Part shown: positions 12,001-15,000 of the stretch, in pieces
Layout of the letters: every line of letters starts with the position of its first letter
How positions within the stretch are numbered: position 1 is the first letter of the stretch
Source: Rickettsiella endosymbiont of Rhagonycha lignosa
GTDB lineage: Bacteria; Pseudomonadota; Gammaproteobacteria; Diplorickettsiales; Diplorickettsiaceae
Direction: 5' to 3'
Assembly (NCBI RefSeq): GCF_964031165.1
Contig: NZ_OZ035011.1
Span: 803,928-827,927, forward strand
Length of the DNA stretch: 24,000 bases
Made by a program: the position numbers

Positions 12001-15000
12001 ATCTATAGTCATCTTAAGTGTTGCTATAACGTCGTTGGCAGCTCCAGTCCTCCTAATTCCTACAACAATAGGCGCTGCAGCTACTGCCATTACGTTCTTT
12101 TCTTGCAAAAAAACCTATTATGACCAAGAAGTAAAATTAATTCAGATCCTAGCTAGATAAAATATGTTTTAACGTTATTTGATAAGCTTGGTAAACATCG
12201 AGCGAGATATTTTCTCGATGCCGATAATAAAGTTTATCGGATATTGAAGTGAGTGAGCGGACCGCGCATGCAAATCATAAGTGCAACGTAATTTCGAAGG
12301 AAATCCTAAATAGATTTTCGACGGTAAGCCCTTTCAGTTTCTTCAACGTAAGCAATTCCTGTTAGTATATTAACAGGAAAAGTTAATATTCCTGAACAAT
12401 TAAAACAAGCCTTAAAATCATCTCCTTCTCTTCCACCTTTGGTTTTATAAAGTCTTTTAGTCATTATAATAGTATTATTCATTGTCCTGAAAAATAACGA
12501 TGTATTCTTGATTTTTTTAGCTACACTAGGAAAATGATCATGATGTTGCCAAAGTTGATCATTAAGTGCGACTATTTCGGCATGCAACCCAGGGATTCCC
12601 GCAGATCTTGGTATAGTGTAATTATTTTTTTTGAGATGATGCGTAATTCGGCTTCGTATGATAGGATGTAGTCCTGCCTCCCCATACTTTTTATACTTTT
12701 CATCCACTGCATTTAAAAATGCATCCAGGTTAACTATTAAGTACGTTCTTACGCTAACATTACCTACTCCTGGAAATGAATTTATTTCCCCTCCATCTAT
12801 ATTGTTAAAGAGCGAATTAATTTTATTGGACTCCATTACATTTACACTTGTAGAGTATGCGCTTGCAGCTTTATAAAATGCCGGAGAGAATTTCATCGTC
12901 CTTAATGCTGTTTGTAATGTACGATCACTTAACTTCTGATTCCCCATTGCCTCTCTTTCTTCTTTTCCCTTTTTTAATAGTTGATTCGTCGAATCCTCCA
13001 GCATTTTATAGGCGACTCGAACGATAGGGAATTTTTTAAATAAACACTGTACTATCTTTAAATCATCACATTTATCGCCAGCAAGATCTAAGGCATTTAA
13101 ACTTCTTTTTTTTTGACTTTTCATTGCTCAGCTTTCTTTTATTATTTTTTGGATTTGTAAAATTTTTTTAAAGCACCAATTCGGTTCAGTAACTAAATTT
13201 TAAGCGCAACGCCGTTTGATTGTAACCTGCTTTCCATAATCCATAAATTTGACATCGTTTCCTAAAATCAAGTTGTTTGAACTTCTTAAATTAATCACTT
13301 ACTCCAGGTTGACCTACTATCAAGGCTAACTCGAATATCCGGTTTATTGGCATCTACATCCAAGCTTCGATGTCCTTCGCAACCGTAAAAGCTACACCAA
13401 GCGGTTATTGGACGGTTTTGACTTGGGATCTTAGCTGCTTTTTTTAATGTTGTAATTTCAGAGGCCCCGTTTGTGCTAGTTGTGCTACTTTGTGAGCACT
13501 TTACTAATAACGTGTCTAGAACTGAGCTTACCTCATCTTCTTTTAGTAAATTTGGATGTTCATTCAAGGAAACTAATCTGATCATAAATTCTTTAAAGAA
13601 CGACTCAGGTGAATTACTTTTTATAACGGCATCGATGATGTCGTTTGTGTTAGTCTTATCATGCAATTTATAAAAGCAGATAAAATGGAGAGCATTAAGC
13701 GCTTCTTTAGGACGATTGCAACCCATGATCTTATCGAGATGCTTTTGGATAAACGCTTTTCCAGCACTATCCATATTCCCATAGAAACCTTTGTAGATCC
13801 AAAATAGTACATCAAGCTTACCCCTAACAATAGGATCCACCGTATTAGGATAGTTATATTTTTCAAAAAATTTATCCATGACGGGATTTTTTTTTACAAT
13901 TTTGATACCAAAACAATAAAGATAACTGAGCGCACAAAGATCGTCCGCCAATGCTTTGAAATCTATGTCACTCTTTACCTCCCCCTTTTCATCTAATATT
14001 TTTAAACTAAGTCTATTTAGCCCAGAGTTGTAAATTTCCTGAAATTCTTTTATTGATTCTGATAATTTTTTCCGGTAGGTTTTATATTCTTTATTATTAT
14101 TTTGAGTTGCTTCAAAAGCGGCAGTCACGCGCGCTATTAATGGCTGAGAATTGTTATTCCTATTGACTAGAGCCCACCATAGGGCAATTAAGAACGTAAA
14201 GAAGTTAATTAGCTCAGGGGGTTTAGGCAGTATTTCTAAAGGAAAGGACGGATTTTCAATAAACGCGCTTATTTTTTCTAGATTATGGCTGAGAATTGTT
14301 ATTCCTATTGACTAGAGCCCACCATAGGGCAATTAAGAACGTAAAGAAGTTAATTAGCTCAGGGGGTTTAGGCAGTATTTCTAAAGGAAAGGACGGATTT
14401 TCAATAAACGCGCTTATTTTTTCTAGATTTAAGTTATCTAATACAATATTTTCTATACTTGGGTATCCCATGTTTGTTGGTAAGCTATTACCAAACAAAT
14501 GTTCAAAAGCTTCCAAATGCCCTAATGATGTATCTAAAAATTCCCTGAATCTTTCTGTATTTTCCCAAAAAAGCTTTATCTTATTATGGCTCTGATAAAG
14601 GTAGAATAGCTGCAATCGTTCAAGTGTTTTGTTGGGATTGTTAGATTCAATAATAGTGTTGATGTGCTTTTTTACAAATTCTTTTGTAGAGTTTGCACAT
14701 TGACAATACTCAGAACTGAACCAATTTAATACCTTTGAAACCTCTAGATAATAATCAATACTATTTCTTTGCAATGCTTCTTTTTGAAGAATTTTAAGAA
14801 AATTTACCTTATCGATTTCTACCCTACTAAACCACTCATTGAATGCATTAAGAAGTGCAGTATCCAGTAGATCGTTGAATGCATCATCATGTACATCAGT
14901 CCGTAGTTTAACAAGAAGTTGTTGTTTGTTATCTAAATCTTTATAAAGTTCCTTGTATGAAGCCTCATCTATTTTTACTTTATTCAATATATTCTTTAAT

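Follow-up and report, generated by a model that had tools for sequence, protein, structure and literature searches.

A perfect 145-bp tandem duplication as the probable origin of a newborn pseudogene in a Rickettsiella endosymbiont

The window analysed here is a 24,000-nucleotide stretch of the genome of the Rickettsiella endosymbiont of Rhagonycha lignosa, and all coordinates below refer to this window. Two consecutive open reading frames (ORFs) occupy its minus strand between positions 13295 and 15233. ORF1 (14283-15233) starts with GTG and specifies 316 amino acids; ORF2 (13295-14128), which also starts with GTG, specifies 277 amino acids. In RefSeq the two were entered as separate proteins, WP_342228320.1 and WP_342228319.1, each named 'hypothetical protein', and not as a pseudogene. 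The exact ORF1 and ORF2 proteins each form a one-member cluster that is known from NCBI only and from a single assembly. The same-strand neighbours of the pair are a gene for an ankyrin-repeat protein (15496-16296) and one for a YwqJ-like deaminase (12306-13124).

Direct string comparison demonstrated that positions 14140-14284 and 14285-14429 are identical copies of 145 bp, arranged head to tail. Tandem Repeats Finder reported the same array, and no other, in the 24-kb window (14140-14429; period 145, 2.0 copies, 100% matches, score 580, no indels). The perfect tandem duplication that the initial annotation had placed at 14140-14429 was thus borne out by both methods, and the origin of a perfect 145-base repeat by chance is far beyond expectation. 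The identity ends exactly at both edges of the repeat and extends not one base further, which leaves zero flanking microhomology. Indeed, neither microhomology nor a slippage template was found at the duplication breakpoints. A CGCGCT pair (14130 and 14264) was considered as a slippage template and rejected, as its spacing is 134 bp and not 145. A duplication with zero microhomology does not look like the product of simple slippage between short repeats.

The duplicated unit is made up of native codons 269-316 and one further base. Because 145 equals 3 × 48 + 1, the reading frame is shifted at the copy-copy junction. The copy that is read first (14285-14429, minus strand) is in the native frame and encodes residues 269-316 of the 316-residue product. 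The copy that is read second (14140-14284, minus strand) is 100% identical and lies out of frame, past the stop, in the frame of ORF1; in the frame of ORF2 it is open and native, and contains no ATG, GTG or TTG. ORF1 is terminated by a TAA codon that spans the junction (14283-14285, minus strand; CCA T-AA), with the T contributed by the first-read copy and the AA by the second. The native sequence at this site, seen in the second copy and in relatives, is CCA TTA (Pro316-Leu317). ORF1 therefore equals the ancestral N-terminal 316 residues with no foreign residues, and ORF2 equals ancestral residues 321-597, so that four native residues are lost from ORF2. When one copy was deleted in silico, an uninterrupted ORF of 597 residues was obtained, reading ...RNNNSQP-LIARVTAAFEAT... 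over the former junction; the whole disrupted gene (13295-15233, minus strand) thus comprises 597 codons after removal of one copy. These ORF coordinates match the earlier description of a 316-residue ORF that ends at a junction TAA with a 277-residue ORF beyond it, and the fusion of the two into about 597 codons was reproduced. The initial annotation had also drawn attention to a stop codon lying exactly at the junction. Its position was confirmed, but as a feature it is not remarkable: stop codons make up 10-14% of the codons in the two off-frames of this AT-rich gene, and a junction-exact stop is therefore a mild coincidence. On the same grounds we rejected the idea that the position of the stop carries a meaning of its own.

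A translational bridge over the junction was considered separately. A programmed +1 frameshift at CCA-TAA-T that would join the two ORFs was rejected, since a P-site tRNA on CCA has no pairing available in the +1 frame, where the codon is CAU. Moreover, the product of such an event would carry a 48-residue internal repeat, which is absent from every homologue.

A search with the collapsed 597-residue protein retrieved 14 proteins of 537-673 amino acids with identities of 56-83% and E values from 0 to 7e-182. They derive from Aquirickettsiella and Rickettsiella MAGs and from read-archive assemblies, and all are unannotated. The collapsed ORF can be aligned with all 14 from end to end, and none of them is interrupted at the junction (..LWWALVNRNNNSQ[PG]LI.RV..). 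The nearest homologue, P0001 (83% identity), has NRNNNSQPLIARVTAAFE at the junction, the same as the collapsed ORF, and its alignment over this region (...LWWALVNRNNNSQPLIARVTAAFEETQ...) is likewise identical. The DNA of three related loci (L001, L002 and L003) gave a gapless alignment to the collapsed sequence, leaving the second copy unmatched, and a conserved 36-mer of the unit was present exactly once in each of two JGI metagenome contigs (L009 and L010). A 30-mer specific to the copy-copy junction had 0 matches in the JGI metagenomes. No split at the position of the junction was found in any relative, either among the 14 homologues or among the relatives detected by profile search. Since all 14 homologues read through the junction and five DNA loci are single-copy, we conclude that the ancestral state is one gene. 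This backs the proposal of the initial annotation that a frameshifting duplication has split one gene of about 597 codons. The orthologous loci were also compared for the presence of two independent genes with their own start signals, and relatives were found to carry a single gene.

The expression signals of the two ORFs were inspected next to each other. A Shine-Dalgarno-like GGAG motif (15241-15244, minus strand) lies 7 nt upstream of the GTG of ORF1. The best promoter-like match of the region, a candidate sigma-70-like site (15301-15329, minus strand; TTGCCA-17-TATATT, 10/12) identified by consensus match only, lies 68 nt upstream of the ORF1 start. With this native start context, the product of ORF1 would consist of the first 316 native residues and nothing else, and the predicted fragment ends just after the hydrophobic segment of the protein. 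The start of ORF2 follows the ORF1 stop at a distance of 155 nt, and its GTG is the native Val321 codon, which aligns with a conserved internal Val in the homologues (R-V-[TV]-A-A-F). No Shine-Dalgarno sequence of the GGAG type was found upstream of ORF2, where the sequence is GC-rich; this carries little weight, since a clear motif precedes only about 5 of 15 genes in the window. A promoter-like site was not found on the minus strand between the junction and ORF2 either. Judged by these signals, only the N-terminal fragment would be made, if there is any product at all.

The genomic setting of the split gene was compared with that in the closely related complete genome OZ026451.1, the housekeeping proteins of which are 96-99% identical to those of the window. 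Both genomes share the same flanks, namely an aldehyde dehydrogenase at one end and a protein of 673/715 residues, ABC-F, LapB and S1 at the other. Between these flanks OZ026451.1 has one gene for an M66/StcE-like peptidase, whereas mostly orphan genes fill about 13 kb of the window, from which it follows that the split gene sits in a strain-variable island. Specifically, the segment 3399-16296, flanked by the genes for the aldehyde dehydrogenase (1663-3141) and the 673-residue protein (16668-18689), is absent from OZ026451.1. It holds orphan genes for proteins of 884, 776, 260 and 205 residues, together with the deaminase gene, the split gene and the ankyrin-repeat gene. Other relatives have different neighbours around the gene.

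Several observations were made elsewhere in this region. At 3399-4004 (plus strand), an ORF of 201 codons with a TTG start matches a response-regulator receiver domain from profile position 48 onwards, followed by an Hpt domain; as it appears to be truncated at its N-terminus, it may be another decayed gene. The ORFs of 884 and 776 codons (5392-8046 and 8036-10366, plus strand) have no Pfam match and overlap by 11 nt in different frames, and they could either be coupled to each other or be the two parts of a single frameshifted gene of about 1,660 codons. The nearest independent contig (L004; Logan ERR13948526) is 99.5% identical at the nucleotide level to positions 15465-19208, differing by 14 mismatches and 2 gaps over 3.7 kb. 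The contig stops at 15465, which is 31 nt past the ankyrin gene and before the split gene is reached. Another contig (L006; ENA ERZ25039551 contig_14500) was compared with L005 and represents the OZ026451.1 locus with broken genes, where rpsA is in three pieces and the M66 peptidase gene in four. This breakage looks like the result of an error-rich assembly rather than biology, and it illustrates that split genes in such data need care at the level of the reads.

The family to which the split gene belongs is small and restricted to Rickettsiella and Aquirickettsiella. When 1.84 billion cluster representatives were searched exhaustively with a profile, no more than 11 proteins were retrieved, and the distant relatives match only the C-terminal ~150-200 residues (profile positions ~350-570). 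No Pfam, NCBIfam or PDB sequence-profile match was obtained for the collapsed protein, its homologues or the distant relatives. From the 14-sequence alignment AlphaFold2 produced an all-helical model of poor quality (mean pLDDT 49.7, pTM 0.35), which was disregarded, as was a Foldseek search of the PDB with this low-confidence model, which gave nothing better than E = 0.88. A motif of ~50 residues, VL.W..Y....K.F..KH...I...N.P...L..L, is common to both halves of the protein (31% identity, pairwise E = 5e-6) and is also present twice in distant relatives, including R. grylli RICGR_0838. Because this motif recurs, the protein looks like two related helical modules; the twofold occurrence points to an ancient internal duplication that defined the architecture of the family. 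Hydrophobicity is highest between the modules, at residues 292-309 (Kyte-Doolittle 1.82 over 17 residues), and this stretch is encoded inside the duplicated segment. RICGR_0838 (EDP46771.1 / WP_240992217.1) is itself a distant member of the same family that matches over the C-terminal ~150-200 residues. Only its C-terminal module aligns with significance, and being an uncharacterised hypothetical protein, it adds no functional information.

The gene had been called effector-like. Its restriction to one lineage, the ankyrin-repeat neighbour, the variable island, and the complete Dot/Icm systems that the literature reports for R. grylli and R. viridis, as distinct from the present strain, make this label plausible by context. 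No recognisable eukaryote-like or known effector domain was found in the collapsed protein by Pfam, NCBIfam and PDB profile search. Within the 24-kb window, Dot/Icm genes are absent.

Duplication and decay were also observed in other members of the family. In the homologue P0012 (locus L008; ENA ERZ27232215 k141_140274), positions 4368-4789 contain an independent tandem duplication of 207 bp (69 codons), which is in frame and falls inside the C-terminal motif region. Its two copies are 95% identical in DNA and 86-88% in protein. This duplication is older and tolerated, and it shows that intragenic duplications of such size occur in the family. In L001, a decayed second family member (7914-8141, minus strand) lies tail to tail with the intact orthologue (5986-7776). 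The C-terminal 76 residues of this remnant are 92% identical to the C-terminus of the window protein, and they are preceded by a short piece that resembles N-terminal residues ~70-95.

Taken together, we favour, with a probability of about 70%, the reading that a very recent 145-bp tandem duplication inside one 597-codon, lineage-specific Rickettsiella gene has produced a nascent pseudogene. The duplication would have occurred within the single gene and shifted the frame at the copy-copy junction, where a TAA happened to form. Expression from the native promoter and ribosome-binding site would now be limited to the N-terminal fragment of 316 residues, while the C-terminal 277 codons would persist as an open frame from Val321, for which no initiation signals were found. 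ORF2 is probably not translated, and the locus would therefore be a newborn pseudogene, that is, a loss-of-function allele in an accessory island. In line with this, intact, colinear, full-length orthologues exist, and the lesion both shifts the frame and adds a premature stop codon. As the copies show zero divergence, there is no signal of relaxed selection either way. Reversion by slippage or unequal exchange would be possible, as for any perfect tandem repeat, and we infer that this reversibility is a by-product of the structure and not a designed switch. Three options had been put forward earlier, a fresh pseudogene, a reversible ON/OFF state and an assembly artefact; the first is now favoured, and a programmed switch has found no positive support.

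Such a pseudogene would be in ample company, since Rickettsiella genomes are reported to contain tens to hundreds of pseudogenes each (bioRxiv 10.1101/2024.12.03.626579). The present locus resembles the nascent pseudogenes of host-restricted Legionellales symbionts (Rickettsiella and Coxiella-like endosymbionts) in combining a frameshift and a premature stop with an intact state in relatives, and in affecting an accessory gene in a variable region. It differs from them in that the lesion is a perfect 145-bp tandem duplication instead of a point indel, IS insertion or deletion. In addition, there is no secondary decay here, and automated annotation gives two proteins.

The strongest competitor of the pseudogene is an assembly or consensus artefact, in which the locus would truly have one copy and the second would have been made by unmerged overlapping ends or by a minority or erroneous read path. 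Perfect identity combined with zero junction microhomology has the look of an unmerged 145-bp overlap. Zero microhomology is unusual for slippage-type duplications and fits an unmerged overlap equally well, which counts against a real duplication. Likewise, the two-copy state and the exact ORFs are known from one assembly, and the junction 30-mer is absent from the JGI metagenomes. On the other hand, the genome is a single contig of 1,677,843 bp, the window contains no other tandem array, and a genuine, diverged duplication of 207 bp exists in an orthologue. Symbiont genomes named in this style are usually PacBio HiFi assemblies, the reads of which span an array of 290 bp many times, and 145 is not a usual k-mer overlap length. 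Because intragenic duplication and decay recur in the family, we argue that the present duplication is biological, and we regard an artefact as unlikely.

A second possibility is phase variation, where the two-copy allele would be the OFF state of a host-interaction gene and the symbiont population would return to ON when one copy is precisely lost. Published OFF alleles have this same structure, a perfect intragenic tandem duplication with a frameshift; collapse of the present repeat restores the exact ancestral frame, and the gene is located among accessory, effector-like genes. In Streptococcus pneumoniae, an intragenic tandem duplication in cap3A turns the capsule OFF and its precise loss turns it ON (Waite 2001, as cited in PMC11163986), and a reversible loss-of-function tandem duplication is described for phcA of Ralstonia solanacearum (Poussier 2003, as cited in bioRxiv 10.1101/2023.04.27.538605). 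The likeness to cap3A lies in a gene that is turned off by an intragenic tandem duplication and restored by its precise loss, and the likeness to phcA in a tandem duplication within the coding sequence with reversible loss of function. The differences are in the evidence from the two systems as far as these citing sources relate it: for cap3A both reversion and recurrent independent duplications were seen experimentally, whereas here there is a single allele from one assembly and no phenotype, and for phcA, a known regulator, a phenotype was scored and reversion was seen in planta, whereas the present gene is from an uncultured symbiont. While an inactivating perfect duplication whose loss restores the gene is indeed present, recurrent independent inactivating duplications were not observed, as no second out-of-frame duplication occurs in the 14 homologues or the five DNA loci. 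The sole other duplication in the family, that of 207 bp, is in frame and diverged, and hence fixed rather than switching. Finally, structure alone is no sign of selected switching, since any tandem duplication is reversible. Phase variation is for these reasons clearly improbable.

Least probable of the alternatives is a functional fission, in which both halves would be made and work as separate polypeptides with one ~50-residue motif each (pairwise E = 5e-6): the break does fall between two module-like regions, distant relatives do match only profile positions ~350-570, and ORF1 has no foreign residues while ORF2 lacks only four native ones, but ORF2 starts at an internal Val codon 155 nt past the ORF1 stop, too great a distance for translational coupling, no Shine-Dalgarno sequence or promoter-like site lies upstream of it, and no relative is split at the same position.

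With the pseudogene as the preferred reading, WP_342228320.1 and WP_342228319.1 are the halves of one gene, and the annotation should flag a single disrupted gene. A mid-size tandem duplication without microhomology is a type of mutation that is seldom caught before decay or reversion. If mixed copy numbers were present in the reads, the locus would become a candidate phase-variable gene; otherwise the event is an ordinary one. It is likewise improbable that the two copies mark one setting of a genuine ON-OFF switch, working by duplication and collapse, for a membrane-associated, Rickettsiella-specific host-interaction protein in a mixed symbiont population. Were this true, an uncultured, maternally transmitted or pathogenic arthropod symbiont would supply the first description of duplication-type phase variation for the Legionellales. 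The analysis also defines a small, uncharacterised Rickettsiella/Aquirickettsiella protein family that has a two-motif architecture with a hydrophobic segment in the centre, and in which intragenic duplication and decay have occurred repeatedly. Most likely, the event itself is a neat but ordinary tandem-duplication pseudogene, of a kind that is common in such symbionts, and it captures the inactivation of a symbiont gene at time zero.
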